Positions 10,332-25,116 of a DNA stretch of 31,902 nucleotides are shown one piece after another. The number at the start of each line of letters is the position of its first letter. Within the stretch, counting starts at the first letter, position 1. Made by a program: the position numbers and the translations under genes. Under the pieces are notes generated by a model that worked only from the letters and a program-made list of their open reading frames with translations, had not been told where the DNA came from and made no database searches. Source of the stretch: an uncultured bacterium (lineage in GTDB: Bacteria > Hydrothermota > Tepidihabitantia > Tepidihabitantales > Tepidihabitantaceae); contig CAZSUX010000002.1 in assembly GCA_964610135.1 (NCBI GenBank), positions 1 through 31,902 of the forward strand, given 5' to 3'.

Positions 10332-11188
10332 CCAAATACACCTACTACCCAGGCTGCACGCTCTACACCAAGGCACGGAGTCTGGACCTGTGTGCGCGCA
10401 GGGCAGCCGAGAAGGTTGGGTTCGAACTGGTCGAGATGCCGTCATGGAACTGCTGCGGGGCCATATACAACGCCACCAGCGATGACCTCGCGGCCCAGGT
10501 TGGGTCGGTGCGCAATCTGGCCAAGGCCAGCCAGTTGGGTGACAAGCTGGTCACCCTGTGCGCCGCATGCCACAACGTGCTCAAGCGGGTGCAGAACCGG
10601 CTGGACCAGCCGGGCAACGAGGTCGAAAGCGAGCGTCTGAAGACATTCGTTGACGAGAAATTCGAGCAGCCGGTCAAGGTGCTGCACTACCTCGAAGTCC
10701 TGAAGAACGACATTGGCTGGGACAAGGTCAAAGAGAAGGTCACGAAGCCGCTGGTCAAACTCAAGGTTGCGTCCTACTACGGGTGCCTGATGGTCAGGCC
10801 CAGCGAAGTGCTGGAATTCGACGACCCGGAGAATCCCCAGGTGATGGATGACCTGATACGCATTCTCGGGGCGGCGCCCACCAAGTTCGACTTCAAGGCC
10901 GAATGCTGCGGAGGGTATCTGGTCGTGAACCGTCGTGATGTGGCCAAGTCCGCGTCGCAGAGGATCCTGGACAATGCCAAGGCCTGGGGCGCGGAGGCGG
11001 TCGTTACGACCTGCCCGTTGTGCCAGTACAACCTGGACAAGTTGCGGGTGATGACCGGAGGTTCTCTGCCCGTGTTCTACTTCACGCAATTGCTCGGCAT
11101 CGCGGTCGGACTTACGCAGGACGAGCTCGGGCTGGAGCACAATGCCGGCGACCCGGTCGGATTCCTGAAAGCGAAGGGCCTGCTGTGA
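10328..11188 (+). CDS. hdrB: Heterodisulfide reductase subunit B
   Basis: Two CCG domains: YYPGC...NCCG...CAAC and YYGC...ECCGG...TTCPLCQYNL. Confidence 0.93.
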   Translation: MTKYTYYPGCTLYTKARSLDLCARRAAEKVGFELVEMPSWNCCGAIYNATSDDLAAQVGSVRNLAKASQLGDKLVTLCAACHNVLKRVQNRLDQPGNEVESERLKTFVDEKFEQPVKVLHYLEVLKNDIGWDKVKEKVTKPLVKLKVASYYGCLMVRPSEVLEFDDPENPQVMDDLIRILGAAPTKFDFKAECCGGYLVVNRRDVAKSASQRILDNAKAWGAEAVVTTCPLCQYNLDKLRVMTGGSLPVFYFTQLLGIAVGLTQDELGLEHNAGDPVGFLKAKGLL

Positions 11189-13209
11189 CGCAAGACGCAT
11201 CACGCCCCACGCCTGATGCCGGAATCCCGCACGCTGACGTGCCTGGCGTCGAGCCTCGTGCGTCGAGCGTGAGGCGTGTTGGCGTTTTCGTCTGCCACTG
11301 CGGTATCAACATCGCCGGAACGGTCAAGATTCCCGAGGTGCTGGAGAGGGTCGGGGCGATGCAGGGCGTGGCGGTGACCAAGGACTACAAGTACTGCTGT
11401 TCGGATCCGGGCCAGCAGATGATCCGGGACTCAATCAAGACTGACAAGCTGGACCGGGTCATCGTTGCCTGCTGTTCGCCGACGCTGCACGAGACGACGT
11501 TCCGCAACGCCTGCGGCGAGGCGGGGCTGAATCCCTACCTCTGCGAGATTGCCAATATCCGCGAGCAGTGTGCCTGGGTGACCGAAGACAAGGACAAGGC
11601 GACCGACAAGGCGACCGAGATCATCCGGACCACAAAGGCCAAGGTTGAGAACGACCTCCCGCTTGAAGCCATCACCGTGCCAATCAACAAGCGCGCGCTG
11701 GTAGTCGGGGCAGGGATTGCCGGCATCCAGGCCGCGCTGGACATCGCCAACGCCGGGTACGAGGTCGTGCTGGTGGAGAAAGAGCCCTCCATCGGCGGAC
11801 ACATGGCCCAGCTTTCCGAGACTTTCCCTACTCTGGACTGCTCCCAGTGCATCTTGACCCCGCGGACGGTCGAGACGGGCCGGCATCCGAAGATAAAGCT
11901 GATGACCTATTCCGAAATCGACAGCGTCTCCGGTTATGTCGGCAACTTCAAGGTGAAGGTCAGACAGAAGGCGCGCTACGTCGACTTCAAGACCTGCACA
12001 GGCTGCGGCGCGTGTCTCGAGAAGTGCCCGGGTAGAACCGAGTCACGGTTCGAGCGCGGGCTGACCAAAGGCAAGGCGATCTACCGGTTGCTGCCGCAGG
12101 CCGTGCCTAACCGGCCCGTGATTGACGCCAAGGCTTGCGTATACCTGACCAAGGGCAAGTGCGGCATCTGCGCCAAGGTCTGTCCGACCGGCGCCATCCG
12201 CTACGACGACACCGACAAGTTCGTCGAGGAAGAGGTCGGCGCAATCGTGCTGGCGACCGGGTATGAGTTGTTCGACGCGACCAAGCTCGGGTCGTACGGC
12301 TTCGGGCTTGTCCCGGACGTGATTGATGGTCTCGCCTTCGAGCGGCTGCTCTCTGCTTCCGGGCCCACGTCGGGCGAGGTCAAGCGACCCTCAGACGGCA
12401 AGACGCCGAAGAAGATTGTGTTCGTGCAGTGCGCAGGCTCTCGCGACTCGACCGCCGGGATGCCATACTGCTCGAAGATCTGCTGCATGTATACGGCCAA
12501 GCAGGCGATACTCTACCGGCATCGGGTTCACGACGGGCAGGCGACAATCTGCTACATTGATGTGCGGACCCCGGGCAAGGGGTTCGAGGAGTTCTACAAG
12601 CGCGCAACCGACGACGGTATCCAGTATCTGCGCGGCAAGGTCTCCAAGATATTCCGGCAGGGCGACAAGGTTGTGGTCTGGGCCGCGGACACGCTGGCCG
12701 GCCGCAAGGTAGAACTCGAAGCGGACATGGTTGTGCTCGCCACGGCAGTCATCGCCAACCCGGACGGCGTGGCCTTGGCGCGCAAGCTGAAGACCCAGAT
12801 CGACACGCACGGTTTCATGACCGAGGCGCACCCGAAGCTCAGGCCGGTCGAGACCCTGACCGCTGGGTTCTTCCTGGCCGGTTGCGGCCAGGGGCCCAAG
12901 GACATCCCGGAAACCGTGGCGCAGGCATCGGCAGCGGCCGCCAAGGTCCTGGCAATGTTCGGGAACACGCGCCTTACCCACTCGCCGACGACAGCTCAGG
13001 TTGACGAGGAGATCTGCGTGGGCTGCGGCTACTGCGAGCGGACGTGCGCCTACGAAGCGGTGAAGGTCGACCCGGCGAAGAAGAAGGCGGTCGTGAACGC
13101 GGCCCTCTGCGAAGGGTGCGGAGCGTGCGCGGTTGCCTGTCCGTCGGGTGCGATGACGCACAAGAACGCCACCAAGAAGTCGATATTCGAGATGGCGGAT
13201 TCGTTCTAG
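11185..13209 (+). CDS. hdrA: Heterodisulfide reductase subunit A, canonical type, with a repeat-derived N-terminal extension
   Basis: GVFVCHCG, ACCSP, NIREQCAWV, FAD motif GAGIAG, DCSQCILTP, inserted ferredoxin, QCAGSRD..YCSKICCMY, C-terminal 2x[4Fe-4S]. GTG 11185 overlaps the hdrB stop. Confidence 0.93.
   Translation: MTQDASRPTPDAGIPHADVPGVEPRASSVRRVGVFVCHCGINIAGTVKIPEVLERVGAMQGVAVTKDYKYCCSDPGQQMIRDSIKTDKLDRVIVACCSPTLHETTFRNACGEAGLNPYLCEIANIREQCAWVTEDKDKATDKATEIIRTTKAKVENDLPLEAITVPINKRALVVGAGIAGIQAALDIANAGYEVVLVEKEPSIGGHMAQLSETFPTLDCSQCILTPRTVETGRHPKIKLMTYSEIDSVSGYVGNFKVKVRQKARYVDFKTCTGCGACLEKCPGRTESRFERGLTKGKAIYRLLPQAVPNRPVIDAKACVYLTKGKCGICAKVCPTGAIRYDDTDKFVEEEVGAIVLATGYELFDATKLGSYGFGLVPDVIDGLAFERLLSASGPTSGEVKRPSDGKTPKKIVFVQCAGSRDSTAGMPYCSKICCMYTAKQAILYRHRVHDGQATICYIDVRTPGKGFEEFYKRATDDGIQYLRGKVSKIFRQGDKVVVWAADTLAGRKVELEADMVVLATAVIANPDGVALARKLKTQIDTHGFMTEAHPKLRPVETLTAGFFLAGCGQGPKDIPETVAQASAAAAKVLAMFGNTRLTHSPTTAQVDEEICVGCGYCERTCAYEAVKVDPAKKKAVVNAALCEGCGACAVACPSGAMTHKNATKKSIFEMADSF
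11187..11278. repeat. Inverted pair of heptamer arrays (5+5 units)
   Basis: GACGCAA GACGCAT CACGCCC CACGCCT GATGCCG (11187-11221), 22-nt spacer, TGGCGTC GAGCCTC GTGCGTC GAGCGTG AGGCGTG (11244-11278). AGGCGTG is the reverse complement of CACGCCT. Confidence 0.75.
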
Positions 13210-13215
13210 GGCACG

Positions 13216-16200
13216 ATGACCAGTGACCAGGTACCAGTGACCAGCCCCGAGCCGGCGAACGGGCCAGTCGGTGCAGTGCTGGTAGTGGGCTCGGGAATCG
13301 GCGGCATCCAGGCGGCGCTGGAACTGGGCGATGCCGGGTTCAAGGTCTACCTGCTCGACGAGGGGCCGGCCATCGGCGGCGTGATGGCGATGCTCGACAA
13401 GACCTTCCCGACCAACGACTGCTCGATGTGCATCCTGTCGCCGAAACTGGTCGGCACCGGCAGGCACCAGAACATCGAGCTCGTCAACTACAGCGAGCTC
13501 TTGAGCCTTGATGGCGAGCCCGGGCGGTTCAAGGCGAAGATTCGCCGGAAGCCGCGGTTCGTCCTCCTCGACAAGTGCACGGGTTGTATGGACTGCACCA
13601 AGGTCTGTCCGGTCGAGGTGCCGGACGAGTACAACCAGAAGCTGGCGATGCGCCGGGCGACCTATAAGCTCTACCCGCAGGCGATTCCCAATGCGGTAGC
13701 TATCGAGAAGAACGAAGGCAAGGCCCCGTGTCGGCTGGCCTGCCCATCCGGCGTCAACGCGCAGGGATACGTTGCGCTCATCTCGCAACGGAAGTTCAAG
13801 GAAGCCTACGAACTGGTGCGCGAGCGGTTGCCGTTCCCTGGCATCTGCGGTCGCGTCTGCCACCACCCGTGCGAGCAGGAGTGCAACCGCAAGGAGTACG
13901 AATCACCCGTTTCCATCCGGACCCTGAAGCGGTTCGCCGCCGACTACGTGTATTCCAACAAGATCGAATACCCCGTCATCAAAGCACCGGCAGCGGAACG
14001 CTCGGAGCAGGTCGCAGTAGTCGGGGCCGGCCCGGCCGGGCTTACCTGTGCGCTCGACCTGCGCGCCAAAGGCTACAAGGTGACCGTGTTTGATGCCACG
14101 GACAAGCCGGGCGGGATGATGCGCTGGGGCATTCCGGCGTACCGCCTGCCGCGCGAGACCCTTGACCGGGAAATCAAGGACATCACCGATACCGGCGTCG
14201 ATCTGAAGCTCAAGAGCCCGGTCAACGGGACCGCGGGCGTTCAGAACCTGCTCGGACAGGGGTTTTCTGCAGCGTTCGTCGCCCTCGGCTGCTCCAAGAG
14301 CCGGACCCTGAAGATTGACGGGATGGATCTTGATGGCGTGTTGCACGGCATCGAGTTCCTGCGCGACGTCAACGCCGGCAAGAAGCCGGCGGTCGGCAAG
14401 CGAGTCGTTGTCATCGGCGGCGGCAACGTCGCGGTTGACGTGGCGCTGTGCGCCCGACGGCTCGGCGCCGAGGACGTGACGATGACGTGCCTGGAGTGCC
14501 GCGAGGAAATGCCGGCCCACGAGTGGGAAATCTCCGACGCGACGGCCGAGGGTGTGAAGCTGAACCCCTCGTGGGGACCGCAGGCGGTTGCTGGTGAGAA
14601 CGGCAAGGTGACCGGACTCCGGACAATCGAGTGCACGCGGGTCTTCGATGACGCGCACAAGTTCAACCCGCAGTTCGGCTGCGTCGAGGGGTTTGTTCCT
14701 GCCGACACCGTTATCCTTGCCATCGGCCAGGCGGTGGATGCCGACGGGTTTGACGGGTTCGAGCGCGGACCGGGCGGTACGTTCAAGGTCAATCCGCTGA
14801 CATTTGAGACCACTCTGCCCGGTGTCTTCGCCGGCGGCGATATGGTTTCGGGACCGGCGTCGGTGATTGAGGCCGTGAATGCCGGCCACGAGGCCGCGAT
14901 TTCGATTGATCGGTTCATCAACCGGCAGGATCTGGCCGAAGGACGCGCGAAGCCGAAGGAACAGGCGGCCAAGGCCGAAGAGTCGGCAGCGGCCAGAGCG
15001 AAGATCGAGCGGCGCGAGCGTGCCGAGGAAGTTTCGTTGCCGGCAAGTGAGCGCGTCGCAGACTTCCGTGAAGTAGCGCAGGGTTTCACCGAAGAGCAGG
15101 CAGTCGCTGAGGCACAGCGCTGCCTGAACTGCGGCATCTGCTGCGAGTGCCTCCAGTGCGTCACCGCCTGCGAGGCGAAGGCAATCGACCACACGCAGAC
15201 CGCGTCCGAGGAGGAACTCGAAGTCGGTGCGGTCGTTCTTTCCGCCGGGTTCAAGGAGTACAAACCGACGGGTGAATACGGCTACGGTTACGGCCGGTAC
15301 CCGAACGTGGTGACCAGCCTCGAGTTTGAGCGCATACTCTCCGCCTCCGGGCCGTACGAAGGCCACGTGAAGCGGCCGAGCGACCTGACGCAGCCGAAGA
15401 AAGTCGCTTGGATTCAGTGTGTCGGTTCGCGCAACGCCGAGCACTACTATTGTTCGTCGGTCTGCTGCATGTACGCGACCAAGGAAGCGGTCATCGCCCG
15501 CGAGCACTGCGGCGGCAACCTCGACTGCCACGTCTACTACATGGACATGCGTTGCTTCGGCAAGGACTTTGAGAAGTATTACGACCGGGCGAAGGATGAG
15601 TACGGCGTCCAGTTCCGGCGATGCAAGGTGAGCGCGGTGCAGAGGAAGGGACAAAGGACGAGGGACGAAGGACAAAGCCCGGACGGGACCGACGAGGACC
15701 TTCTGATATCGTACGAGGATGAGGCGGGGACACTGCGCGAGGAGGAGTACGACATGGTCGTGGTCTCGACCGCGCTCGCGGCCAATCCGCGTGCGGTTGA
15801 GATGGCAAAGCGCATTGGCGTAGCCACCGACGACCAAGGGTTCGTGAAAACCGACCGGTTCGAACCGGTGCTGACCGACCGGCCCGGCGTCTACGCCTGC
15901 GGCGCGCTGGCTGAGCCGAAGGACATTCCCGAGACCGTGACCGAGGCGACCGGCGCGGCCGGCGCAGTAGCGGTTCTGCTCGCCCCGGCTCGCAACACGC
16001 TGGTCCGGCCCAAGGTGTACCCGCCGTTCCGTGACGTGTCGGGTGAGGAGCCGCGCATTGGCGTGTTTATCTGCAACTGCGGCATCAACATCGGCGGCGT
16101 GGTGAAGGTGCCGAGCGTGGTGGAGTACGCCCGCACGCTGCCGAACGTGGTTTTTGTCGACGAGAACCTTTTTACCTGCTCTCAGGACACGCAGCAGAAG

Positions 16201-17793
16201 ATCCGTACCGCTATCGAGGAACACAGGCTCAACCGCGTCGTTGTCGCGTCCTGCACGCCGCGGACGCACGAGCCGCTGTTCCAGGAAACGCTGGCCGAGG
16301 CCGGCCTGAACCCGTACTTGTTCGCGATGGCCAACATCCGTGACCAGTGCTCGTGGGTCCACATGCAGGAGCCGGACGAGGCGACCGAGAAATCGAAGGA
16401 GCTGGTTAGGATGGCGGTGGCCAACTCGCGACTGCTCCGTCCGCTCTCGTCATCGCCGCAGGCGATCGTTCAGAAGGCGCTTGTCATCGGTGGCGGGCTG
16501 GCCGGGATGACCTCGGCAATCGCGGTTGCCGACCAGGGATTTGAAACCTTCCTTGTCGAGAAGGGTGACCGACTGGGCGGCAACCTGCTCAACCTGAGAT
16601 ACACCGAGACCGGCGATGACTTGGTCAGCTACGTGGCACGGCTGGAGCAGCGGCTGAGGGCCCACCCGTTGGTGAAGGTCTTCACCGGCGCCGAGTTGAC
16701 TGCTGTCACGGGCTACGTTGGTAACTACAAAACGACGGTCCAGAGGGAAGGACAAAGGACGAAGAACGAAGGGCAGAGCCAGGACGGATCCGAGGTCATC
16801 GAACATGGCGTCTTCATCGTCGCCACCGGTGCGGAGGAGTACCGGCCGACCGAATTCCTCTACGGCAAGGACCCACGTGTCCTTACCCAGACTGAGTTTG
16901 AGCAAGTCCTCTCCGGTTCACCTTCACTTGATCCCTCGACCCCTCGACCTCTTGATCCCTCTTCTCTCAAGCACGTAGTGATGGTCCAGTGTGTCGGGTC
17001 GCGGGAGAAAGAGCATCCATGGTGTTCGCGCATTTGCTGCACCGAGGCGGTGAAGAACGCGCTCAAACTGAAGAGCATCAGCCCGAAGGCGAATGTCTAT
17101 GTTCTATATCGGGACATGCGTACCTACGGGTTCAAGGAGAAGCTGTACCGCGACGCGCGCGAGGCAGGTGTGATGTTCGTCCGATTCGACCCGGAGACGA
17201 AGCCGGAGGTGACGAGCGCCGACGGCCGGCTGCACGTGTCGGTGTACGACCCGGTACTGCAGCGCCGGCTCGGCATCAACGCCGACCTGCTGGTGCTGTC
17301 GGCCGGCGTGGTCCCGGCGAAGTCGAACCACGACATCGGGCAACTGCTCAAGGTCCCGCTCAACGAGGACGGTTTCTTCCTCGAAGCGCATATGAAACTC
17401 AGGCCGGTGGATTTCACGACCCGCGGCGTGTTCATGGCCGGCATGGCGCACAGCCCGCGCCGGATACCCGAGACCGTGGCTCAGGCGTACGCGGCCGCGG
17501 CGCGCGCCTGCTCGATAATCTCGCACAAGGAGCTTTCGACCGAGGCGGTCGTGGCCGAGGTGAACCCGCGTTGGTGTACGGGCTGCGGCATGTGCGAGGA
17601 GATTTGTCAGTACGAGGCGGTGCGGCTCAACCCCGTGACCGGTAAGTCCGAGGTGACGGCGGTGCTGTGCCAGGGCTGCGGCGCGTGCGCGGCCGCCTGT
17701 CCGTCGGAGGCGATAAAGCTCAAGGGCTTCGAGGCGAAGAATGTCATTTCGATGGTCGACGCGGCATTGGAAGGGTGTGGAATAGATGGCTAA
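13216..17793 (+). CDS. hdrA: HdrL-type large HdrA: two HdrA FAD modules plus a GltD/NfnB-like pyridine-nucleotide oxidoreductase insert
   Basis: GSGIGG and DKTFPTNDCSMC; insert CRLACP...GICGRVCHHPCEQECNR...GAGPAG...GGGNVAVD...GVFAGGD; YCSSVCCMY; internal GVFICNCG; second GGGLAG; WCSRICC; C-terminal ferredoxin. Confidence 0.9.
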   Translation: MTSDQVPVTSPEPANGPVGAVLVVGSGIGGIQAALELGDAGFKVYLLDEGPAIGGVMAMLDKTFPTNDCSMCILSPKLVGTGRHQNIELVNYSELLSLDGEPGRFKAKIRRKPRFVLLDKCTGCMDCTKVCPVEVPDEYNQKLAMRRATYKLYPQAIPNAVAIEKNEGKAPCRLACPSGVNAQGYVALISQRKFKEAYELVRERLPFPGICGRVCHHPCEQECNRKEYESPVSIRTLKRFAADYVYSNKIEYPVIKAPAAERSEQVAVVGAGPAGLTCALDLRAKGYKVTVFDATDKPGGMMRWGIPAYRLPRETLDREIKDITDTGVDLKLKSPVNGTAGVQNLLGQGFSAAFVALGCSKSRTLKIDGMDLDGVLHGIEFLRDVNAGKKPAVGKRVVVIGGGNVAVDVALCARRLGAEDVTMTCLECREEMPAHEWEISDATAEGVKLNPSWGPQAVAGENGKVTGLRTIECTRVFDDAHKFNPQFGCVEGFVPADTVILAIGQAVDADGFDGFERGPGGTFKVNPLTFETTLPGVFAGGDMVSGPASVIEAVNAGHEAAISIDRFINRQDLAEGRAKPKEQAAKAEESAAARAKIERRERAEEVSLPASERVADFREVAQGFTEEQAVAEAQRCLNCGICCECLQCVTACEAKAIDHTQTASEEELEVGAVVLSAGFKEYKPTGEYGYGYGRYPNVVTSLEFERILSASGPYEGHVKRPSDLTQPKKVAWIQCVGSRNAEHYYCSSVCCMYATKEAVIAREHCGGNLDCHVYYMDMRCFGKDFEKYYDRAKDEYGVQFRRCKVSAVQRKGQRTRDEGQSPDGTDEDLLISYEDEAGTLREEEYDMVVVSTALAANPRAVEMAKRIGVATDDQGFVKTDRFEPVLTDRPGVYACGALAEPKDIPETVTEATGAAGAVAVLLAPARNTLVRPKVYPPFRDVSGEEPRIGVFICNCGINIGGVVKVPSVVEYARTLPNVVFVDENLFTCSQDTQQKIRTAIEEHRLNRVVVASCTPRTHEPLFQETLAEAGLNPYLFAMANIRDQCSWVHMQEPDEATEKSKELVRMAVANSRLLRPLSSSPQAIVQKALVIGGGLAGMTSAIAVADQGFETFLVEKGDRLGGNLLNLRYTETGDDLVSYVARLEQRLRAHPLVKVFTGAELTAVTGYVGNYKTTVQREGQRTKNEGQSQDGSEVIEHGVFIVATGAEEYRPTEFLYGKDPRVLTQTEFEQVLSGSPSLDPSTPRPLDPSSLKHVVMVQCVGSREKEHPWCSRICCTEAVKNALKLKSISPKANVYVLYRDMRTYGFKEKLYRDAREAGVMFVRFDPETKPEVTSADGRLHVSVYDPVLQRRLGINADLLVLSAGVVPAKSNHDIGQLLKVPLNEDGFFLEAHMKLRPVDFTTRGVFMAGMAHSPRRIPETVAQAYAAAARACSIISHKELSTEAVVAEVNPRWCTGCGMCEEICQYEAVRLNPVTGKSEVTAVLCQGCGACAAACPSEAIKLKGFEAKNVISMVDAALEGCGIDG
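13217..13244. repeat. Heptamer array (4 units) forming the first codons of hdrL
   Basis: TGACCAG TGACCAG GTACCAG TGACCAG; translates as MTSDQVPVTS. Confidence 0.75.
15640..15692. repeat. 53-bp in-frame module, copy 1 (4 heptamers GGACRAR)
   Basis: CAGAGGAAG GGACAAA GGACGAG GGACGAA GGACAAA GCCCGGACGGGACCGA; peptide QRKGQRTRDEGQSPDGTD. Confidence 0.8.
16741..16793. repeat. 53-bp in-frame module, copy 2
   Basis: CAGAGGGAA GGACAAA GGACGAA GAACGAA GGGCAGA GCCAGGACGGATCCGA; 44/53 identical to 15640-15692; peptide QREGQRTKNEGQSQDGSE. Confidence 0.8.
16927..16958. repeat. Octamer array (4 units) in frame in hdrL
   Basis: CTTGATCC CTCGACCC CTCGACCT CTTGATCC; peptide LDPSTPRPLDP just before VVMVQCVG. 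Confidence 0.8.
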
Positions 17794-18208
17794 TTACGAA
17801 CCTAAGATTGTTGGATTTCTCTGCAACTGGTGCACTTATGCGGGGGCGGACCTCGCCGGCACGTCACGTATGCAGTACCCGCCGAATATGCGACCGATAC
17901 GGGTGATGTGCTCGGGTGCAGTCGACTCGGTGTACGTCCTGCGCGCCCTGCTCGAGGGCGCGGACGGTGTGTTTATTGGTGGCTGTCACCCCGGCGACTG
18001 CCACTACGTCTCGGGCAACTACAAGGCGCGGCGCCGGATGGTGCTGTTCAACTCGGTGATGCAGTCGCTCGGCCTCGAGTCCGACCGCGTCTGGCTGCGC
18101 TGGATTTCCGCGGCCGAGGGCCGGAAGTTCGCCGATACGGTTACCGAGATGACCGTCCACCTCCGCGAGAAGGGGCCGAGTGCCTTCAAAGAGAAGTGGG
18201 AAGTGTGA
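17786..18208 (+). CDS. mvhD: MvhD/FlxD-family [2Fe-2S] adaptor subunit
   Basis: FLCNWCTYAGAD, RVMCSG, GCHPGDCHY, WISAAEG. Confidence 0.92.
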   Translation: MANYEPKIVGFLCNWCTYAGADLAGTSRMQYPPNMRPIRVMCSGAVDSVYVLRALLEGADGVFIGGCHPGDCHYVSGNYKARRRMVLFNSVMQSLGLESDRVWLRWISAAEGRKFADTVTEMTVHLREKGPSAFKEKWEV

Positions 18209-18215
18209 GGGAGCG

Positions 18216-19334
18216 ATGAAGGGAACACTTAAGGTAGACGCGAAGAACCCCGAGGCGGCAATCCGCGGCCTGTTCGCGAAGTGGTTGAAGGACAGCAGGC
18301 TCTCCGCGATTCTCACGCCGGCGTATTCGGCAGCAGGCACCGCCACGATGGCGCTTGTCTCCGACCCGGAGAAGCTGGCCGAGGCCGCGCCGCTGATGCC
18401 GGCGATGGGCGTCAACTCGGCGTCAATCGTGGCCGAGATTGCCCGCGAGGCTTCCCCGAATGCGAAAGTCGGGTTGTTCCTGCGGCCGTGCGAGCTGCGG
18501 GCTGTAGTCGAGTTGATGAAGCTGAAGCAAGTAGTGCCCGACAGCCTCGTGCTCATCGGCGTTGACTGCCCGGGTACGTACAAGGCGGCCGGGTTCCGCG
18601 ACGTGCGCGGCAAGGACGCGGATTTCGACAACAAGCACGCGCTCGAACAGGCGGGCTATGCCGACAACGTGAACTTCCGGATGGGCTGCCAGCTCTGCGA
18701 GTATCCGAAGCCGCTCGTCTTCGACCTGAATGTCGGGTTCATCGGGATGGACGTCGACAAGGAGCTCTGGCTCGAGGCCGCCACTGACAAGGGCAAGGCG
18801 CTGCTCGAGGGAGTCGAACTGAAGGCGCAGGACGAACCGGAGAAGCGGAAGAAGGCGCTGGAGGGCCTGAGCGCCGGCCGGAAGGCGAAGACGGCCGCCC
18901 GTATCGAGGAACTGGACAAGGCAATGCTGGGACCGGACAAGCTCGTCGCGTACTTCGCTGACTGCCTCAACTGCCATAACTGCATGAAGGTCTGCCCGGT
19001 CTGCTATTGCCGAGAGTGCTTCTTCGATTCCGACACGTTCCAGCGCGACATCGGCGAGCACGTCCGTGTCTCCCTGCGCAAAGGCGCGACCCGGATGCCG
19101 TCCGAGACTCTTCTGTTCCATCTGACCCGTATGAACCATATGATGGCTTCGTGTGTGCAGTGCGGCATCTGCGAGGACTCGTGCCCGGTGACCATTGGCC
19201 TTGCTACTTTGTTCAAGAAGGTCTCGCAGAACGCACAGAAGGAGTTCGACTACGTGTCCGGGCGTAACCTGGATGAACCGCTGCCGCTGGCGACGTTCCG
19301 CGAGTCCGAATTCCTCAAGGTAGGGGAAGAATAG
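18216..19334 (+). CDS. FdhB/FrhB-related 4Fe-4S dicluster protein (FlxC-like paralog)
   Basis: RPCELRA, IGVDCPG, CQLCEYP, CLNCHNCMKVCPVCYCRECFF, FHLTRMNH, CVQCGICEDSCP. SD GAGGGA before ATG 18216. Confidence 0.8.
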   Translation: MKGTLKVDAKNPEAAIRGLFAKWLKDSRLSAILTPAYSAAGTATMALVSDPEKLAEAAPLMPAMGVNSASIVAEIAREASPNAKVGLFLRPCELRAVVELMKLKQVVPDSLVLIGVDCPGTYKAAGFRDVRGKDADFDNKHALEQAGYADNVNFRMGCQLCEYPKPLVFDLNVGFIGMDVDKELWLEAATDKGKALLEGVELKAQDEPEKRKKALEGLSAGRKAKTAARIEELDKAMLGPDKLVAYFADCLNCHNCMKVCPVCYCRECFFDSDTFQRDIGEHVRVSLRKGATRMPSETLLFHLTRMNHMMASCVQCGICEDSCPVTIGLATLFKKVSQNAQKEFDYVSGRNLDEPLPLATFRESEFLKVGEE

Positions 19335-19336
19335 GG

Positions 19337-20137
19337 ATGGAAGAGACAAAGGGACAAAGGGACAAAGTGGCTGGGAGTCCGACTTCTTCACTAGGTCCCT
19401 TGATTCCTCGATCCCTTGATCCCTCTTCCGCAGAACTGCTCGTCAACGACCTCGACACTGAGTTCAAGACCCGGCTGGCTGAGAAGTACGGCGACACTGG
19501 GTTCATGCACTGCTTTTCCTGCGGGTCGTGTTCGGCATCCTGCCCGGTGCGGAAGCTTGATGAGAAGTACAACCCGAGGCGCATCATCCGGATGGCGATA
19601 CTCGGTATGAAGGATGAAGTCTACAAGTCCGAGTTCGTCTGGATGTGCTCCTACCACACGACCTGCCTGAACCGCTGCCCCCAGAAGGTGAACATCGGCG
19701 AGGTGGCCGATGCGGTCTCGCGCATGGCGGAAGAGGAGCGCAAGCGGCCGGCTTCCCACAAGGGCAAGGTGACGCAGGCGGAGCGGGACCGGGACTTCAA
19801 GCAGCAGGTGATGAAGGCGGCCAGCAGCGTTTCGGCCTGTTTCACCTGCGGTTCCTGCACCGCGGTCTGCCCGGAGACGCTGTTCGACCCGGAGAAGGAC
19901 CCGCGGCGGTTCATCCGCAAGGTCAACCTCGGGTTGCGGGACGAGGCGCTGGCCGACGAATTCAAGGATATCTGCGCGATTCACTACCGCTGCATCTCGC
20001 GCTGCCCGCAGGGAGTGCAGATCAGCAAGATCATGAATGCCATCAAGCAGTGCGCAGTGGAAGATGGCCACAGCTACCCGGCGTCACTGGCGGCGCTTGA
20101 GAAAGCGGACCGGTCGAAGTCAGGTGCTAGAAGCTAG
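19337..20137 (+). CDS. Tandem (double) HdrC-like protein; second cluster motif of each domain is CxxHxxCxxxCP
   Basis: Domain 1 CFSCGSCSASCP / CSYHTTCLNRCP; domain 2 CFTCGSCTAVCP / CAIHYRCISRCP; NPRRIIR and DPRRFIR linkers as in HdrC. Confidence 0.8.
   Translation: MEETKGQRDKVAGSPTSSLGPLIPRSLDPSSAELLVNDLDTEFKTRLAEKYGDTGFMHCFSCGSCSASCPVRKLDEKYNPRRIIRMAILGMKDEVYKSEFVWMCSYHTTCLNRCPQKVNIGEVADAVSRMAEEERKRPASHKGKVTQAERDRDFKQQVMKAASSVSACFTCGSCTAVCPETLFDPEKDPRRFIRKVNLGLRDEALADEFKDICAIHYRCISRCPQGVQISKIMNAIKQCAVEDGHSYPASLAALEKADRSKSGARS
19343..19423. repeat. Imperfectly inverted pair of octamer arrays at the start of the tandem hdrC gene
   Basis: GAGACAAA GGGACAAA GGGACAAA (19343-19366), spacer, TAGGTCCC TTGATTCC TCGATCCC TTGATCCC (19392-19423). 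Confidence 0.75.
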
Positions 20138-20146
20138 AGCAAGCAC

Positions 20147-20548
20147 GTGACAGACGAAGCCAAAAGCCAAGAGCCAAAAGCCAAAAGTCAAAGCAGCGGA
20201 CCGGCTGACTTACGTGACAGGCTGCTTGATTTCGCTGCGAGTTGCTTGAAGCTTGGCGGTCGGCTGACGCGGACGACCCCGGGCCGGTATGTGGCCGGGC
20301 AGTTGATGCGTTCCAGCGCTTCTGCCGGGGCGAACTACATGGAGGCACGCGGCGCGGAGAGCCGCGCCGATTTCGTCCACAAGCTCCAGGTGGCACTCAA
20401 GGAAGCCAAGGAATCCCAGTACTGGCTCGCTCTCGTCGTCCGAGCGGAACTACTCAATCCCGGCTTTGTTCAGGTTCTGGCCGACGAAGCAGACGCTTTG
20501 GTTCGAATCCTCGCGAAGTCGGTCGTTACCGCCAAAGGACACAGATGA
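20147..20548 (+). CDS. Four-helix bundle protein (23S rRNA intervening-sequence protein / Avd-like family)
   Basis: DLRDRLLDFA...GQLMRSSASAGANYMEA...SRADFVHKLQVALKEAKESQYWL...EADALVRIL matches the family pattern QL.RS..S..AN..EA....S..DF..KL.I..KEA.E..YWL. Confidence 0.9.
   Translation: MTDEAKSQEPKAKSQSSGPADLRDRLLDFAASCLKLGGRLTRTTPGRYVAGQLMRSSASAGANYMEARGAESRADFVHKLQVALKEAKESQYWLALVVRAELLNPGFVQVLADEADALVRILAKSVVTAKGHR
20157..20191. repeat. Left heptamer array of the four-helix-bundle cassette
   Basis: AAGCCAA AAGCCAA GAGCCAA AAGCCAA AAGTCAA. Confidence 0.9.
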
Positions 20549-20553
20549 CGGTT

Positions 20554-20588
20554 TTGCGTCTTGGCTTTTGGCCTTTGGCTTTTAACTT
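20554..20588. repeat. Right (inverted) heptamer array of the four-helix-bundle cassette
   Basis: TTGCGTC TTGGCTT TTGGCCT TTGGCTT TTAACTT; TTGGCTT is the exact reverse complement of AAGCCAA. Confidence 0.9.
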
Positions 20589-20605
20589 GACTCCGGAGTT
20601 CCATC

Positions 20606-23600
20606 ATGCCTGAGCCTTCGACTGGCAAGATCGGTGCTGTATTGGTTGTCGGCGGAGGAATCGGTGGCGTGCAGTCTGCGCTCGACCTGGCCGATTCCGG
20701 CTACAAGGTCTATCTGGTTGACCGTGCACCAGCCATCGGCGGCATCATGGCGATGCTCGACAAGACCTTCCCGACCAACGACTGCTCCATGTGCATCCTC
20801 TCACCCAAGCTGGTCGCTGCCGGACGGCACAAGGACATCGAACTGATGACCCTGACCGAGGTGCTGGGAGTCGAGGGAGAGCCGGGCAACTTCAAGGTTC
20901 GGCTCAAGCGCCATGCCCGCTCAGTCGACCTGTCGAAATGCACCGGCTGCGGCGACTGCTTGACCAAGTGTCCGGTCAAAGACCTGCCGAACGAGTTTGA
21001 GGGCGGACTTTCGAATCGCCGCGCCATCTACCGTCTCTACGCGCAGGCAGTGCCGAACGCGCCGATGATTGACCGCGAGCATTGCCTGAAGTTCACCAAG
21101 GACAAGTGCGGTGCCTGCCAGAAGACGTGCAAGGCCGGCGCCATCGACTACGCTCAGCAGGATGAGGAGTTCACGGTCGAGGTCGGCTCAGTCGTGGTCG
21201 CCGCCGGCTCGAAGATAGCGCCGACCGCACTCCGGCCCGAGTACGGCCACGGCCGATACCCCAACGTCGTGTCCAGCCTCCAGTTCGAGCGGATCCTGTC
21301 TGCGTCCGGGCCATACGGCGGTCACGTCAAACGTCCGTCCGACGGCAAGGCGCCGAAGAAGGTCGCGTGGCTGCAGTGCGTCGGGTCGCGTGACGACTCA
21401 GTCGAGCGCGGTTATTGCTCGGCGATGTGCTGCATGTACGCAGTCAAAGAGGCGGTCATTACGAAGGAACACTCGAGCAATGTCGAGCCGACCGTCTTCT
21501 ACATGGACATGCGTTCGTACGGCAAGGACTTCGACAAGTACGTCGACCGGGCCGAGCAGCAGTATGGAGTCCGTCTGGTCCGCGCTCGCGTCCCGGAAAT
21601 CCGCGAGGACCCGGGTACGCACAACCTCACACTCCGCTACGCCTCGGACGGAGGCAGCTTTGCCGAGGAGTTTGAAATGGTCGTGCTCTCCTGCGGCTTC
21701 GTGCCGCCGCCCGAACTCGTGGACCTGGGCAAACGGCTCGACTTCGAGCTGGACAGATACGGGTTCGCCGCCACCGACGATTGGGCGCCCGCTCGGACGA
21801 GCCGCCCCGGCGTCAGTGTGGCCGGCAGTTTTGCCCAGCCGATGGCTATCCCGGAGACTGTGACCGGCGCGTCGGGAGCGGCCGCTGCGGCCGAGGAGAT
21901 TCTCGCGGCTGAGCGCGGCCGTTTGGTCGCAGTCAAGGAGATGGCGGCTGAGACCGACGTGCGCGGGGAGGCGCCGAGGATAGGCGTGTTCGTCTGCCAC
22001 TGCGGCATCAACATCGGCGGAGTCGTGCGCGTCCCGGAAGTCGTCGAGTTCGCCCGGACCCTGCCTCACGTGGCCTATGCCGAGGAGAACCTGTACTCAT
22101 GCTCGGGCGACACCCAGGACAAGATCAGGGACCGGATCCGCGAGCACCGGCTCAACCGGGTAGTGGTTGCTTCCTGCTCGCCTCGGACTCACGAGCCGCT
22201 GTTCCAGGCCACGGTCGCCGAGGCGGGTCTGAACCCGCACCTGTTCGCGATGACCAACATCCGCGACCAGTGCTCGTGGGTGCACATGAAGGAGCCGGAC
22301 AAGGCGACTGAGAAGTCCAAGGACCTGGTGAAGATGGCGGTCGCACGGGCCATGCGCCTGAAGGCGCTGCCCAAGGTCAAACTGCCCGTGACCAGAGCTG
22401 GATTGGTCGTCGGTGGCGGCATCGCCGGCATGACGGCGGCTCTGTCTTTGGCCGGAGAGGGATTCGATGCATTCCTGGTCGAGCAGGACAAAGAACTCGG
22501 CGGGAATGCCCGCAGCATCGCCCGTACCGTCGAGGGCGACGACGTGCAGAAGCGTTTGAAGGAACTGGCGGACAAGGTCACCAGCCATCCTCGCATCAAG
22601 ACGTTCCTCAATGCGCGCATCAAGGCGATAGACGGCTTTGTCGGCAACTACCAGACCACGCTTGAGGGTGAGGGCACCGTCCTGAAGCACGGAGTCGTGG
22701 TGGTGGCGACGGGCGCGCAATACCGCACACCGACCGAGTACTGCTACGGCCAGAGTTCTCGCATCGTGAGCCAGAAGGAACTGGAAGAGATGATCGAGGG
22801 GTCCAAGGGTCCACGGGTTGGCCTCAGCGGCCTCCGTCAGACGGCGCAGGGGGCCAGGCCTTCGGAGTCACCCGAACCCCGGAACCCCCGAACCCTGGAA
22901 CCCACCTCGCTTCGCTCGGTGGTCATGATCCAGTGCGTTGGGTCGCGCGAGGCTGACCGGCCCTACTGCTCGCGCATCTGCTGCACCGAAGCAGTGAAGA
23001 ACGCGCTGGCAATCAAGGAACTGAACCCCGAGACCGACGTCTGCGTCCTCTATCGCGACATCCGTACCTACGGCATGCGTGAGGAGTACTATCGGCAGGC
23101 GCGCGAGAAAGGTGTCGTCTTCATTCGCTTTGCGCCGGAGACCAAGCCCGATGTACGGGTCGTCGACGGCCGGCCGATTGTCACTGTCAACGACCCGATA
23201 CTGGGCCGGGAAATCGAACTTCAGCCGGATATCCTCGCGCTGTCGTCCGGAATCGTGCCGCAGTCCGGCTCCGAGGGACTGGCCCAGATGCTCAAGGTAC
23301 CGTTGAACAGCGATGGGTTTTTCCTCGAGGCCCATATGAAGCTGCGGCCGGTGGATTTCGCCACCGACGGTGTGTTCATGGCCGGGCTGTGCCACTTCCC
23401 CAAGTTCATCGACGAGGCTACTGCCCAGGCCCAGGCTGCTGCCAGCCGGGCCGCCACGATACTGTCCCGCGACACGCTCGATGCGGAAGCAACGGTAGCC
23501 AACGTGGACCCGGCCAAGTGCTCGGCCTGTCACATGTGCGAAGGGCTCTGTGCCTACCATGCCATCGAAGTGAAGGTCGTGAACGAACGCACCGGCAAGC

Positions 23601-23734
23601 AGGCCGCGGTCGTCAACGAAGCGATGTGCAAAGGCTGCGGCGCCTGCGCCGCCAACTGCCGCTCGCTGGCCATCGATATCCGCGGCTTCCAGTCCGATAA
23701 CATCAGCCGCGAAATCGCGGCGCTGCTGGACTAA
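20606..23734 (+). CDS. hdrA: HdrA-like protein with two FAD modules (no GltD insert)
   Basis: GGGIGG, DKTFPTNDCSMC, ferredoxin insert, YCSAMCCMY, internal GVFVCHCG, GGGIAG, YCSRICC, C-terminal CSACHMC/CKGCGAC; paralogous to 13216-17793. Confidence 0.92.
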   Translation: MPEPSTGKIGAVLVVGGGIGGVQSALDLADSGYKVYLVDRAPAIGGIMAMLDKTFPTNDCSMCILSPKLVAAGRHKDIELMTLTEVLGVEGEPGNFKVRLKRHARSVDLSKCTGCGDCLTKCPVKDLPNEFEGGLSNRRAIYRLYAQAVPNAPMIDREHCLKFTKDKCGACQKTCKAGAIDYAQQDEEFTVEVGSVVVAAGSKIAPTALRPEYGHGRYPNVVSSLQFERILSASGPYGGHVKRPSDGKAPKKVAWLQCVGSRDDSVERGYCSAMCCMYAVKEAVITKEHSSNVEPTVFYMDMRSYGKDFDKYVDRAEQQYGVRLVRARVPEIREDPGTHNLTLRYASDGGSFAEEFEMVVLSCGFVPPPELVDLGKRLDFELDRYGFAATDDWAPARTSRPGVSVAGSFAQPMAIPETVTGASGAAAAAEEILAAERGRLVAVKEMAAETDVRGEAPRIGVFVCHCGINIGGVVRVPEVVEFARTLPHVAYAEENLYSCSGDTQDKIRDRIREHRLNRVVVASCSPRTHEPLFQATVAEAGLNPHLFAMTNIRDQCSWVHMKEPDKATEKSKDLVKMAVARAMRLKALPKVKLPVTRAGLVVGGGIAGMTAALSLAGEGFDAFLVEQDKELGGNARSIARTVEGDDVQKRLKELADKVTSHPRIKTFLNARIKAIDGFVGNYQTTLEGEGTVLKHGVVVVATGAQYRTPTEYCYGQSSRIVSQKELEEMIEGSKGPRVGLSGLRQTAQGARPSESPEPRNPRTLEPTSLRSVVMIQCVGSREADRPYCSRICCTEAVKNALAIKELNPETDVCVLYRDIRTYGMREEYYRQAREKGVVFIRFAPETKPDVRVVDGRPIVTVNDPILGREIELQPDILALSSGIVPQSGSEGLAQMLKVPLNSDGFFLEAHMKLRPVDFATDGVFMAGLCHFPKFIDEATAQAQAAASRAATILSRDTLDAEATVANVDPAKCSACHMCEGLCAYHAIEVKVVNERTGKQAAVVNEAMCKGCGACAANCRSLAIDIRGFQSDNISREIAALLD
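22794..22902. repeat. Inverted pair of octamer arrays in frame in the third hdrA
   Basis: TCGAGGGG TCCAAGGG TCCACGGG (22794-22817), 53-nt spacer, CCCGAACC CCGGAACC CCCGAACC CTGGAACC (22871-22902). Confidence 0.8.
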
Positions 23735-23752
23735 ACGATGGGAGAATCGCAC

Positions 23753-24211
23753 ATGCCGGAAACTGCTGCGGCCGAGAAGGCAGTCGGCGGCGAATTCGAA
23801 CCCAAGATCGTGGCTTTTCTCTGCAACTGGTGTTCGTATGCCGGCGCCGACCTTGCCGGCATATCGCGCATCCAGTACCCGCCCAGCATCCGGGTCATTC
23901 GCGTTCCGTGCTCCGGTCGGGTTGACCCCTTCTATATCCTCAAGGCGCTGCAGAACGGCGCGGATGGCGTGCTCATCTCCGGCTGCCATCCCGGCGACTG
24001 CCACTACCTGACCGGAAACTATGTCGCCCGGCGCCGGTTCGCAGTCCTCAACGACCTGCTGGAGTTCGCCGGCATCGACCAGGGCCGGGTTAGCTTCTCC
24101 TGGGTTTCTGCTGCCGAAGGTGAACGGTTCGCGGAGGTCGTGCGCGACGTCACCGAGAAGGTCCGCCAACTCGGGCCGAACAAGAAGCTGCTGAGGGAGC
24201 CAATCGCGTGA
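23753..24211 (+). CDS. flxD: MvhD-like subunit of the Flx module
   Basis: FLCNWCSYAGAD, RVPCSG, GCHPGDCHY; first in the flxD-C-B-A order. SD GGAG 8 nt before ATG 23753 (alternative start 23738). Confidence 0.88.
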   Translation: MPETAAAEKAVGGEFEPKIVAFLCNWCSYAGADLAGISRIQYPPSIRVIRVPCSGRVDPFYILKALQNGADGVLISGCHPGDCHYLTGNYVARRRFAVLNDLLEFAGIDQGRVSFSWVSAAEGERFAEVVRDVTEKVRQLGPNKKLLREPIA

Positions 24212-25047
24212 GCCGCGAAGACCAACTCCGCAAGCGGGCCACGGAGTTGCTGGCGGGCAAGGAAGTCGTGATGGTTCTCGGCTATCGTGCGGGCAAGCGT
24301 CCCGGCACGGCCACACCCGCATTCGTCACCCGGCCGGAAGACGTCGATACGCTCATCTTCGACGACCGCTGCGGCCCCAACCTCGCCGCCTACCTTCCGC
24401 GCGTCAAGCACCGGGGCAAGATTGCCATCGTTGCCAAAGGCTGTGATTCGCGCTCAATCGTCTCCCTGCTCAAGGAGAAACAGGTTGACCGCGGGCAACT
24501 AGTGATTCTCGGAGTCGGCTGTGAAGGCGTGAAAGAGAACGGCCGCCTCAGCGATTCCTGCACGACCTGCGCTCACCCGAACCCGGTAATCTGCGACGAG
24601 ATGATAGGGGAGAAGGTGGCCGAGCGCGAGCCCGCTCCCAACCCGCTGGCCGACTTTGAGAAGCTCTCGCCGGACCAGCGCTGGCAGGCATTGATGGACG
24701 ACGTCTCGCGCTGCATCCGCTGCTATGCCTGCCGCCAGGTCTGCCCGAACTGCTATTGCCCTACCTGCTTTGTCGACGCCAACAGCCCGCAGTGGGTCGG
24801 CAAGACCACAGCCGGTTCGGACAACATGATGTTCCATCTGATGCGGGCGATGCACATGGCCGGTCGCTGCGTGGAGTGCGGTTCCTGCAGTCGCGGGTGC
24901 CCGATGGGTATCGACCTGATGAAGTTCAACCGTAAGGTGGCACATGTCGTGAAGGAGCGGTTCGGCGCTGTCGCGGGGTTGAATCCCGACGAACCACCGG
25001 CGCTTGCTGCCTTCGACCCGAACGACAAACAGGAGTTCATACGCTGA
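24208..25047 (+). CDS. flxC: 4Fe-4S dicluster protein FlxC
   Basis: KGCDSRS, CIRCYACRQVCPNCYCPTCF, FHLMRAMHMAGRCVECGSCSRGCP; gene order. Confidence 0.82.
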   Translation: MSREDQLRKRATELLAGKEVVMVLGYRAGKRPGTATPAFVTRPEDVDTLIFDDRCGPNLAAYLPRVKHRGKIAIVAKGCDSRSIVSLLKEKQVDRGQLVILGVGCEGVKENGRLSDSCTTCAHPNPVICDEMIGEKVAEREPAPNPLADFEKLSPDQRWQALMDDVSRCIRCYACRQVCPNCYCPTCFVDANSPQWVGKTTAGSDNMMFHLMRAMHMAGRCVECGSCSRGCPMGIDLMKFNRKVAHVVKERFGAVAGLNPDEPPALAAFDPNDKQEFIR

Positions 25048-25048
25048 C

Positions 25049-25116
25049 CATTGTAGATTGCGGATTGCAGATGGCAGATGGCAGAGTTCGGCGGCCGGCG
25101 TCTGGCGTTTGGAGCT
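25049..25116. repeat. Heptamer arrays filling the flxC-flxB intergenic gap
   Basis: CATTGTA GATTGCG GATTGCA GATGGCA GATGGCA (25049-25083), then CGGCGTC TGGCGTT TGGAGCT (25096-25116), which are only weakly complementary to the first array. Confidence 0.7.

Follow-up and report, generated by a model that had tools for sequence, protein, structure and literature searches.

Short tandem arrays in an Hdr-Flx operon as probable arms of small insertion elements with the design of rRNA intervening sequences

A four-helix-bundle cassette and its companion arrays in one operon

We analyzed a 31,902-nt stretch of DNA from an uncultured Hydrothermota bacterium (contig CAZSUX010000002.1, positions 1 to 31,902; hereafter the window), whose nearest named relatives are metagenome-assembled genomes (MAGs) of candidate division WOR-3 and which carries a long Hdr-Flx operon (Table 1). 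Between hdrC2 and hdrA2 lies a complete element of ~445 nt (20147-20591), a four-helix-bundle (4HB) gene enclosed by two arrays of short tandem units, and other arrays of 7- or 8-nt units punctuate the same operon. A first-pass annotation had listed eight such loci, and all eight do hold short-period arrays by Tandem Repeats Finder (TRF) and sequence inspection. We read these arrays as probably the arms of small insertion elements, for reasons that begin with the one cassette that still holds a gene.

The 133-residue product of that gene scores 52.7 bits against PF05635 (cut-off 33.8; E 5.6e-14) and 68.3 bits against TIGR02436 ('four helix bundle protein'; cut-off 24), which places it in this family, and its residues 16-132 match the solved structure PDB 2RLD (E 3.7e-17 with the single sequence, 8.4e-27 with a profile). 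The family is very large: among 1386 candidates collected for this query, 1303 matched at E <= 0.001. To our knowledge, the family has no assigned function outside diversity-generating retroelements (DGRs). No PADLOC defence-system family matched the protein at E <= 0.01 and Rfam gave no match anywhere in the window; an anti-phage defence system and an Rfam identity were therefore rejected, and no rRNA lies in the window. Ratios of nonsynonymous to synonymous change (dN/dS) of 0.07-0.13 in seven pairs indicate strong purifying selection on the protein; the value is 0.13 against L002, one of the L-numbered loci that were gathered by similarity to the 4HB protein, one genome per species, and whose gene calls are approximations based on open reading frames (ORFs). 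The non-coding right end of the cassette is identical at 43/50 nt between the window and L002 despite a 62% difference at synonymous sites of the gene, so the right arm itself is constrained; protein and non-coding arm are both conserved far more than synonymous sites.

The left array makes up the first ~16 codons of the 4HB gene, and the hdrA2 ribosome-binding site GGAG (20595-20598) and ATG (20606) stand directly 3' of the right arm. When the 461-nt transcript is folded (z -2.1), the two arms (36 nt, 81% complementary, 360 nt apart) pair with each other in the minimum-free-energy and the centroid structure alike. L012, L016 and L022 have a different 4HB cassette at this junction, and 20117-20142, just upstream of the window's cassette, matches its left arm and start region. 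The cassette is transcribed: metatranscriptome contigs match it without mismatch in three lake runs (X22, X23 and X24), and contigs of two further runs (X19 and X25) cover the 4HB gene with 2-9 mismatches. One RNA contig extends from hdrC2 into the cassette and one spans 20172-20591, arm to arm, its ends being no evidence for cleavage. A 123-nt RNA contig of run X25 carries the 31-nt AAGCCAA array (window 20156-20186) between flanks unlike the window, and the same array therefore occurs in another context in the lake community.

TRF called 31 arrays of any period in the window, 11 of them with period 7 or 8, against a mean of 1.9 and a maximum of 6 in 100 dinucleotide-preserving shuffles. All 11 are confined to 13217-25085, and by TRF neither the first 11 kb of the window nor the part beyond 25.1 kb holds an array of this kind, which bears out the earlier remark that none occur in 1-9.9 kb or in mvhG and mvhA; a degenerate 7-mer pattern at 11245-11277 was called as period 14 (2x7). 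With two relatives included (window, L088 and L090), the operon holds ~29 arrays in ~48 kb and the adjoining non-operon DNA 2 in ~22 kb. Reading frames are intact at every array of the window, again as the first-pass annotation had it. The inverted-pair geometry that it described as frequent was found in part. It applies to the cassette arms, to site E (-39.6 kcal/mol, z -3.35) and to site A, where ~5 degenerate GACGCAA-type units face ~5 GGCGTCG-type units (-42.7 kcal/mol, z -2.36), and only these fold significantly better than shuffles. It does not apply to sites B and C, which are solo arms, or to site G, whose adjacent arrays are direct and non-complementary (z +0.43); the arms of site F pair weakly, and the folds at sites B, C, D, F and G were no better than those of shuffles. 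The interval 16741-16958, once taken for one hairpin, proved to be insertions in two separate protein loops.

Inside genes, the arrays are in frame, free of stop codons and placed in variable loops, and alignment with orthologues and solved HdrA identified the array peptides as lineage-specific loop insertions, a point that the first-pass annotation had put forward for checking. L090 shares site B, whereas L002, L004 and L088 lack it and have shorter hdrL N-termini; in L002 and L004, a 4HB cassette occupies the junction just upstream of hdrL. Site C is missing from the orthologues in L002 and L004 and from the paralogue hdrA2, the D-left loop holds a complete hairpin in L004 (arms CGAAGGA / AACCCTCG), and D-right, in a position paralogous to site F, is absent in L002, L004 and L016. 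Site E, in frame right behind the hdrC2 start codon, adds 29-30 codons. The loop of site F is ~19 residues longer than in the solved methanogen HdrA 8RVU; the insertion is absent in L016, and other orthologues carry a different unit family, GGGACAAA / GATCCCTY. Site G, between genes, is kept in L009, L010 and L038 and absent in L008, where stop and start overlap, and its ATTGCAG is the cassette unit of 4HB genes in L005, L009 and L038.

Several of these arrays are related to one another beyond their units. The stretches 15635-15692 (site C) and 16736-16793 (D-left) are 83% identical over 58 nt, flanks included (family D20), and 16922-16964 (D-right) and 19386-19428, the right arm of site E, share 84% identity over 43 nt (family D4), the identity taking in the non-repeat ends CTTCACT and CTCTTC. 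Because non-repeat ends are shared in both pairs, sequence identity marks the in-gene arrays as copies of discrete sequences and not products of local slippage. The 8-mer family of site E, AAGGGACA/TCCCTTGA, and the GGGTTCAA/GAACCCC family turn up again in a further MAG (L029). The elements form discrete sequence families, with several copies and in several genomes. The 8-mer unit contains TGA: in long ORFs, its in-frame position reads CGA in 10/10 cases, the zero count of in-frame TGA being forced by the definition of an ORF, and its out-of-frame position reads TGA in 10/16, a contrast that shows a consensus unit edited to stay open.

The MAG contig L001 is 99-100% identical to the window across 17.8-20.6 kb. 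At site F, the two differ by matched changes in both arms (GGGTC.../GAACCC versus GGGAC.../GATCCC), which lie in a lower-identity mosaic block and appear as likely to have been imported by recombination as to have changed in place. Inside hdrA2 (20700-23800), identity to L001 drops to alternating 85-100% blocks, a pattern that points to recombination between diverged lineages within one gene. Segments of hdrL and hdrA2 are also paralogous (13246-13534 / 20609-20897 and 16033-16332 / 21956-22255; 74-77% nucleotide identity), which could support recombination between both genes and explain why the same loop was struck at D-right and F.

Table 1. Genes, arrays and cassettes of the window, and junctions occupied by 4HB cassettes in orthologous operons
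Feature	Position	Strand	Remarks
hdrC1	9936-10331	+
hdrB1	10328-11188	+	stop 11186-11188
Site A	11187-11268	+	intergenic hairpin filling the gap from hdrB1 stop to hdrA1 start
hdrA1	about 11269-13209	+	probable GTG start at 11269
hdrL	13216-17793	+	HdrL-type fusion, 1525 aa
Site B	13217-13244	+	solo (TGACCAG)x4, codons 1-10 of hdrL
Site C	15646-15681	+	in-frame 12-codon insertion (KGQRTRDEGQSP) in hdrL; purine-rich GGACRAR 7-mer arm, solo
Site D-left	16744-16776	+	in-frame purine-rich 7-mer arm in second hdrL loop; copy of site C
Site D-right	16925-16965	+	in-frame pyrimidine-rich 8-mer arm (TTGATCCC / TCGACCCC), loop before VVMVQCVGSR
mvhD1	17786-18208	+
fdhB-like	18180-19334	+	FrhB/FdhB-like Fe-S protein
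hdrC2	19337-20137	+	tandem-HdrC protein
Site E	19340-19429	+	ORF-less 8-mer hairpin, (AAGGGACA)x3.4 - 28 nt - (TCCCTTGA)x3.6
Left-arm remnant	20117-20142	+	GAAGCTA type; overlaps hdrC2 end; also in L088
4HB gene	20147-20548	+	133 aa
Cassette left arm	20157-20192	+	(AAGCCAA)x5.1; TRF score 58; inverted repeat I1; 4HB codons 4-16
Cassette right arm	20551-20591	+	(TTGGCTT)x3-4, TTGAC end; from TRF, inverted-repeat search and fold
hdrA2	20606-23734	+	double-HdrA protein, 1042 aa
Site F	22798-22904	+	in-frame 8-mer element, hdrA2 loop before VVMIQCVGSR; arms GGGTCCAA / GAACCCCG
mvhD2	23738-24211	+
fer279	24208-25047	+	Fe-S protein; stop 25045-25047
Site G	25050-25114	+	direct arrays, (ATTGCAG)x5 then (TTCGGCG-like)x4, filling the gap from fer279 stop to flxB ATG
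flxB-like	25121-26140	+	ATG at 25121
flxA-like	26141-26983	+
mvhG	27262-28239	+
mvhA	28239-29702	+
TRF arrays of period 7/8, first six	13217-13244, 15649-15677, 16747-16772, 16933-16961, 19341-19367, 19396-19424
TRF arrays of period 7/8, other five	20157-20192, 20561-20583, 22799-22818, 22874-22903, 25050-25085
Cassette at hdrA1/hdrL			L002, L004
Cassette at fdhB-like/hdrC2			L012
Cassette at hdrC2/hdrA2			window, L001, L007, L012 (second cassette), L016, L019, L022, L088, L090
Cassette at flxB/flxA			L003, L005, L006, L008, L009, L010, L038

Cassette turnover in orthologous operons and spread across phyla

Many of the closest homologues of the 4HB gene stand in orthologous Hdr-Flx operons, at four different junctions (Table 1), and at a given junction one element may be exchanged for another. 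The protein of the window is 80% identical to that of L002, which sits at a different junction and also has the AAGCCAA unit, and only 51-56% identical to the group in L016, L019, L022 and L012 at its own junction. Judged by these identities, the proteins do not group by junction; this grouping, together with the remnant at 20117-20142, leads us to conclude that cassettes are replaced at a junction and move between junctions. The fdhB-like/hdrC2 junction is bare in L016, L007, L088 and L090, holds the ORF-less 8-mer hairpin of site E in the window, L001, L019 and L022, and holds a 7-mer 4HB cassette in L012. Thus the earlier idea that the 'empty' hairpins are cassette footprints stands in so far as they are related to filled cassettes. 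It fails for the window's own cassette, because none of the window's empty sites has the unit AAGCCAA; they belong mostly to 8-mer families that are also found in other genomes.

ORF-less versions that align with cassette ends do exist. L090, whose cassette is 92% identical to that of the window, has ORF-less AAGCCAA/TTTGGC elements at hdrL/mvhD1 and hdrA2/mvhD2, both bare in the window, and these align end to end with the left and right cassette ends, including the terminal TTGA...GGAGG...ATG. In L033, L041 and L059, ORF-less hairpins carry the unit of the neighboring cassette and keep an AAAATG mini-ORF. The elements fill precisely the interval from a stop codon to the start that follows it, bringing along the ribosome-binding site for the later gene; the reading frame of the upstream gene extends into the left array in L010 and L012. 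The complete form is co-oriented with its host operon: where the two neighbors agree in direction, the 4HB gene runs with both in 52/53 cases, with median gaps of ~50 nt.

Such placement would also suit cis-regulatory structures selected by the host, whether RNA duplexes or binding sites for the 4HB protein or RNase III/E, that segment or stabilize parts of a ~20-kb polycistronic mRNA and set Hdr/Flx subunit ratios, as the first-pass annotation had offered as its second idea. Five sites stand exactly at gene junctions, the ribosome-binding site for the gene that follows comes with the elements, both the 4HB protein and the right arm are conserved, the cassette is transcribed with hdrC2, and similar paired arrays between operon genes of Geobacter metallireducens have been proposed as global regulator sites (PMC2700814). 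However, the polymorphism of the junctions weakens this explanation: among close relatives whose operons are otherwise conserved, one and the same junction is found bare, with a hairpin or with a cassette, and at site A each relative (L090, L088 and L004) has a different array family. Many phyla also have cassettes in unrelated surroundings, such as between cas1 and cas2 or beside restriction-type genes, half of the window's sites do not fold, and a regulatory need leaves the in-frame copies in protein loops unexplained. We therefore consider host regulation unlikely; neither stoichiometry tuning nor recognition by the 4HB protein was supported by this analysis.

Some relatives have more elaborate arrangements. 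At hdrB1/hdrA1 of L004 (1034-1231), five successive purine-rich arrays with different units and no complementary arms fill ~230 nt, among them GAGGGTTC x5, CGGAGAG x3.7, GCAAAGT-type x4.7 and, after a short spacer, AGAAGTC x5.6. In L010 (2690-2885), L088 (10405-10560) and L090 (10460-10615), the right arm of the cassette is duplicated 2-3x, with 50-65-nt spacers, before the downstream gene. The operon of L088 ends after hdrA2 and is followed by an opposite-strand McrBC-type restriction pair in place of the Flx/Mvh genes (13881-18107).

Beyond these operons, 80 loci with homologues of 45-99% identity represent more than 15 phyla including archaea: WOR-3, Planctomycetota, Acidobacteriota, Nitrospirota, Thermodesulfobacteriota, Bacteroidota, Chloroflexota, Omnitrophota, Zixibacteria, Cloacimonadota and others, with Methanosarcinales and Methanomicrobia among the archaea. 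For 80 genes with at least 150 nt on both sides, a period-7/8 array was found at or just before the start in 65, just after the stop in 63, on both sides in 56 and on neither in 8. The local background outside cassettes (0.34 arrays/kb) would give ~9 of 80 (binomial p ~1e-45), and we conclude that arrays and 4HB gene belong together, an association the first-pass annotation had proposed. TRF found no array by the cassette in L016, L019 and L022; on inspection, L016, L022 and the second cassette of L012 have degenerate GAAGCTA/TAGCTTC arrays that TRF misses. The two arms can form, on average, ~29 bp at ~-34 kcal/mol. The units vary by locus, with a rotation-fitted consensus near AATGCAA, and arm polarity is consistent, the 5' arm always being purine/A-rich and the 3' side pyrimidine-rich. 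In 462 kb of flanks, TRF called 83 arrays of period 7, 37 of period 8, 71 of period 9 and 29 of period 12, and the excess of period 7 is not expected of coding DNA. The 8-mer arrays were never the sole flank of a gene in this sample; they occurred only in L030, where they form the outer arms, and in L074, where they make up one arm of the two, and their kinship with the 7-mers consequently rests on shared design, shared sites and L030.

Finished plasmids carry the same cassettes, with a 4HB gene flanked by AATTCAA x4.4 and AATTTTG x4.6 in Nostoc flagelliforme and by AAATCGT and ACGATTT in Planktothrix agardhii, and with the same design in Chlorohelix, Treponema saccharophilum and Anabaena cylindrica. 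These plasmids tie cyanobacterial heptamer repeats to the same gene family and rule out an assembly artefact, which was rejected also on the 99-100% agreement of the window and L001 over site E and the cassette. In Treponema saccharophilum pTS1 (L083, 1152-1961), a very long AGGAAAG x41 array comes first, then TCCGCTC x6.6, the 4HB gene and CTCTCCG x11, so copy number can far exceed the ~5 of MAGs. In Anabaena cylindrica PCC 7122 pANACY.01 (L082, 1312-2145), the 4HB gene lies between cas2 and cas1, on the opposite strand to both, with heptamer arrays AAGTAAA x9.4 and TTAACTT x16. In the Candidatus Chlorohelix allophototropha plasmid (L086, 1370-2029), the cassette has a DUF1156 gene on one side and a Swt1-family HEPN gene on the other, and the array block 5' of the 4HB gene is repeated 3' of it. 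A correspondence of five repeats to the five subunits of a pentamer was considered and dropped, as the median of ~5 units in MAG loci gives way to 4 to 41 copies in finished plasmids. Carriage by phages was set aside as well, one relative only having been found in viral contigs (IMG/VR).

Could the arrays, or at least the solo ones, have arisen by replication slippage in place, as tolerated low-complexity linkers unrelated to the cassette? Site B is derivable from a single ACCAG motif in L002, copy number varies between Coxiella strains, finished plasmids hold arrays of 7-41 copies, and 93/165 arrays are without a partner. The non-repeat flanks shared by C and D-left and by D-right and E-right weaken this account, and it does not explain why the same 8-mer families occur in different genomes, why periods 7 and 8 are favored over 6, 10 and 11, why purine-rich arms stand 5' and pyrimidine-rich arms 3', or why the association with one protein family is so strong. 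We give slippage little credence as an explanation of the arrays.

Known systems with a related design

The closest published counterpart is the intervening sequence (IVS) known from Coxiella burnetii 23S rRNA, an insertion of 428-444 nt with a 28-bp terminal stem and an S23p ORF, in which 3-4 tandem GACAGAT heptamers precede the ORF and RNase III cuts in the stem at the first repeat (PMC4990558). The first-pass statement that no established mechanism links such repeats to this protein family was thus too strong. IVSs with S23p in 23S rRNA are also reported for Leptospira and Brucella, and the S23p of Xanthomonas is described as a toroidal homopentamer in work cited in PMC4990558. The window cassette shares the size of the Coxiella IVS (~445 nt), an enclosing stem of terminal inverted repeats (24-36 bp, beyond the 20-bp minimum that we set for the comparison), a 5' arm of tandem heptamers that immediately precede or overlap the ORF start, an ORF of the same family (PF05635/TIGR02436), and transcription with the host gene from no promoter of its own. 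Unlike the IVS, it lies between protein-coding genes of an mRNA operon and not in rRNA helix 9, 25 or 45; its ORF has a dN/dS of ~0.1, whereas the Coxiella ORF has been regarded as decaying; ORF-less copies occur alongside it within coding sequence; and its excision by RNase III would be expected by analogy only. Every structural criterion of the Coxiella type apart from rRNA residence is present, and the cassette is accordingly IVS-like, not an IVS.

Arrays of 4-5 tandem 7- or 8-nt units, mostly in opposite-strand pairs of varying spacing, inside genes as well as between successive genes of operons, are known from Geobacter metallireducens as classes 1-3 of 'global regulator binding sites' and as 49 GGACCGG x4 elements (PMC2700814). 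By their published description, with which we compared them, they differ in being read as sites for IHF/HU or a regulator and in having no link to a 4HB gene. The IS110-family elements ISGme8/9 lie at a fixed distance from the class 1 octanucleotide arrays (PMC2700814, supplementary legend), which suggests that arrays of this kind serve as targets for insertion in their own right.

The cyanobacterial short tandemly repeated repetitive (STRR) sequences and the TAACTGA repeats of Beggiatoaceae, Cyanobacteria and Bacteroidetes (PMC4679880) are likewise intergenic, oriented tandem heptamers in 2-6 copies, often ending just before a start codon and patchy in phylogeny, and 4HB genes of Nostoc, Anabaena and Planktothrix are flanked by such arrays. 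Their published descriptions, in contrast, treat them as direct repeats, give them no partner protein and propose a role in translation, with only one inverted pair reported.

A gene flanked by inverted repeat copies plus many gene-less hairpin copies is the arrangement of REPIN/REP sequences with RAYT and of miniature inverted-repeat transposable elements (MITEs), and Rickettsia palindromic elements also insert in frame into protein-coding genes. The ORF-less copies described here resemble all three by analogy only. RAYT is an HUH (Y1) transposase, whereas the flanked gene of the window matches only PF05635/TIGR02436, and we know of no catalytic activity of the 4HB protein; REPs are not tandem arrays, and each cassette lineage here has its own unit.

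Finally, PF05635 is the commonest Pfam family adjoining DGR reverse transcriptases (PMC10053308), and the DGR accessory protein Avd is homologous in fold and family to the 4HB protein. The window differs from a DGR in that no long ORF has a reverse transcriptase domain and no template/variable repeat pair is present, the long direct repeats being paralogous hdrA-type coding segments only; the relatives sit in unrelated operons.

Proposed operon-dwelling elements and what they may explain

Taken together, we think it probable that the arrays are arms of small palindromic insertion elements with the design of bacterial rRNA IVSs. Such an element would consist of a purine-rich array of ~4-6 units of 7 (or 8) nt opposite a reverse-complementary array, with either a promoterless TIGR02436/PF05635 4HB gene or a short loop between them, and would come in three forms: complete with the 4HB gene, ORF-less, and as solo arms. 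The elements are presumably selfish, proliferating locally and surviving only where expression is unharmed, at stop/start junctions and in permissive loops. In the transcript, the arms are predicted to pair into a 24-36 bp imperfect duplex, and this duplex may be a substrate for RNase III that would cut the operon mRNA at junctions, as argued from the IVSs of Coxiella, Leptospira and Salmonella. The 4HB protein would then serve the element, probably by binding the arrays. The protein is conserved, is homologous to Avd and is constantly associated with arrays, all of which suggests such binding.

Several observations weigh against this reading. The concentration on Hdr-Flx operons is partly a sampling effect of a similarity-based collection, and the RNA data, being assembled contigs only, show transcription and cannot reveal cleavage. 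The window's empty sites lack the unit of its own cassette, and no gene in the sample is flanked by 8-mer arrays only. Domain searches of the window's long ORFs yielded no sign of a reverse transcriptase, a transposase or an RNase III. Target-site duplications were not definable, since the junctions are too diverged, and only a GGAG-like motif recurs at both ends. A simple hairpin element does not predict the many solo arrays or the same-polarity stacks of site G and L004; these stacks, the duplicated right arms of L010, L088 and L090 and the lack of genes flanked by 8-mers alone fit none of the models well. Sense and antisense arm duplexes of 59 cassettes showed no asymmetry (G:U 91 versus 79; Wilcoxon p 0.48), an absence of sense-strand bias that neither supports nor excludes RNA, as opposed to DNA, as the selected form.

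This symmetry is also what one would expect if the arrays were recombination sites acting at the DNA level, extruded as hairpins or cruciforms for cassette capture and exchange in the manner of integron attC sites or the repeat targets of IS110-family elements, with RNA folding incidental. Replacement of one cassette by another at a single junction, where part of the earlier arm is left behind, is in keeping with such sites, as are the right arms duplicated around the gene in L059, L010, L088 and L090 and the fixed distance of IS110-family elements from the Geobacter octamer sites (PMC2700814). Yet no recombinase is linked to the cassettes in the window and none was noticed in the loci, and this, with the strict co-orientation of the ORF with host transcription, weakens the proposal; the one experimentally studied member is, moreover, processed as RNA. 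DNA-level recombination therefore seems to us improbable as the main role of the arrays, and we retain the IVS-like insertion element as their best explanation.

More tentatively, and with somewhat less than even confidence in the whole, TIGR02436 genes and inverted heptamer arrays may make up a single class of mobile element that is widespread in both bacteria and archaea and lives in operons. Of this class, the 23S rRNA IVS would be just the special case noticed first; ORF-less and solo-arm derivatives would explain several repeat families that have long lacked an explanation, namely cyanobacterial STRRs, Geobacter 'global regulator sites' and in-frame repeat peptides of enzymes; and the protein would be an array binder with a part in the copying or processing of the element. 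We found no paper on a general link between the 4HB family and heptamer arrays or on cassettes in mRNA operons, in a search that left subscription journals mostly outside, where priority is possible.

The origin and mobility of rRNA IVSs have been questions since about 1990. The cassette described here shows that the IVS design is not tied to rRNA, as it lives between protein-coding genes, changes junctions from one related genome to another and leaves ORF-less copies, and element sequence is even translated within essential redox enzymes. If the wider reading is true, one type of element would account for several unexplained families of heptamer repeats, and the cultured Nostoc, Planktothrix, Treponema saccharophilum and Geobacter metallireducens could be used as carriers. 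For annotation, the finding is a warning that loop peptides such as KGQRDKG or LDPSxPRSLDPSS, and extensions at the N- and C-termini, probably come from such elements in these lineages.

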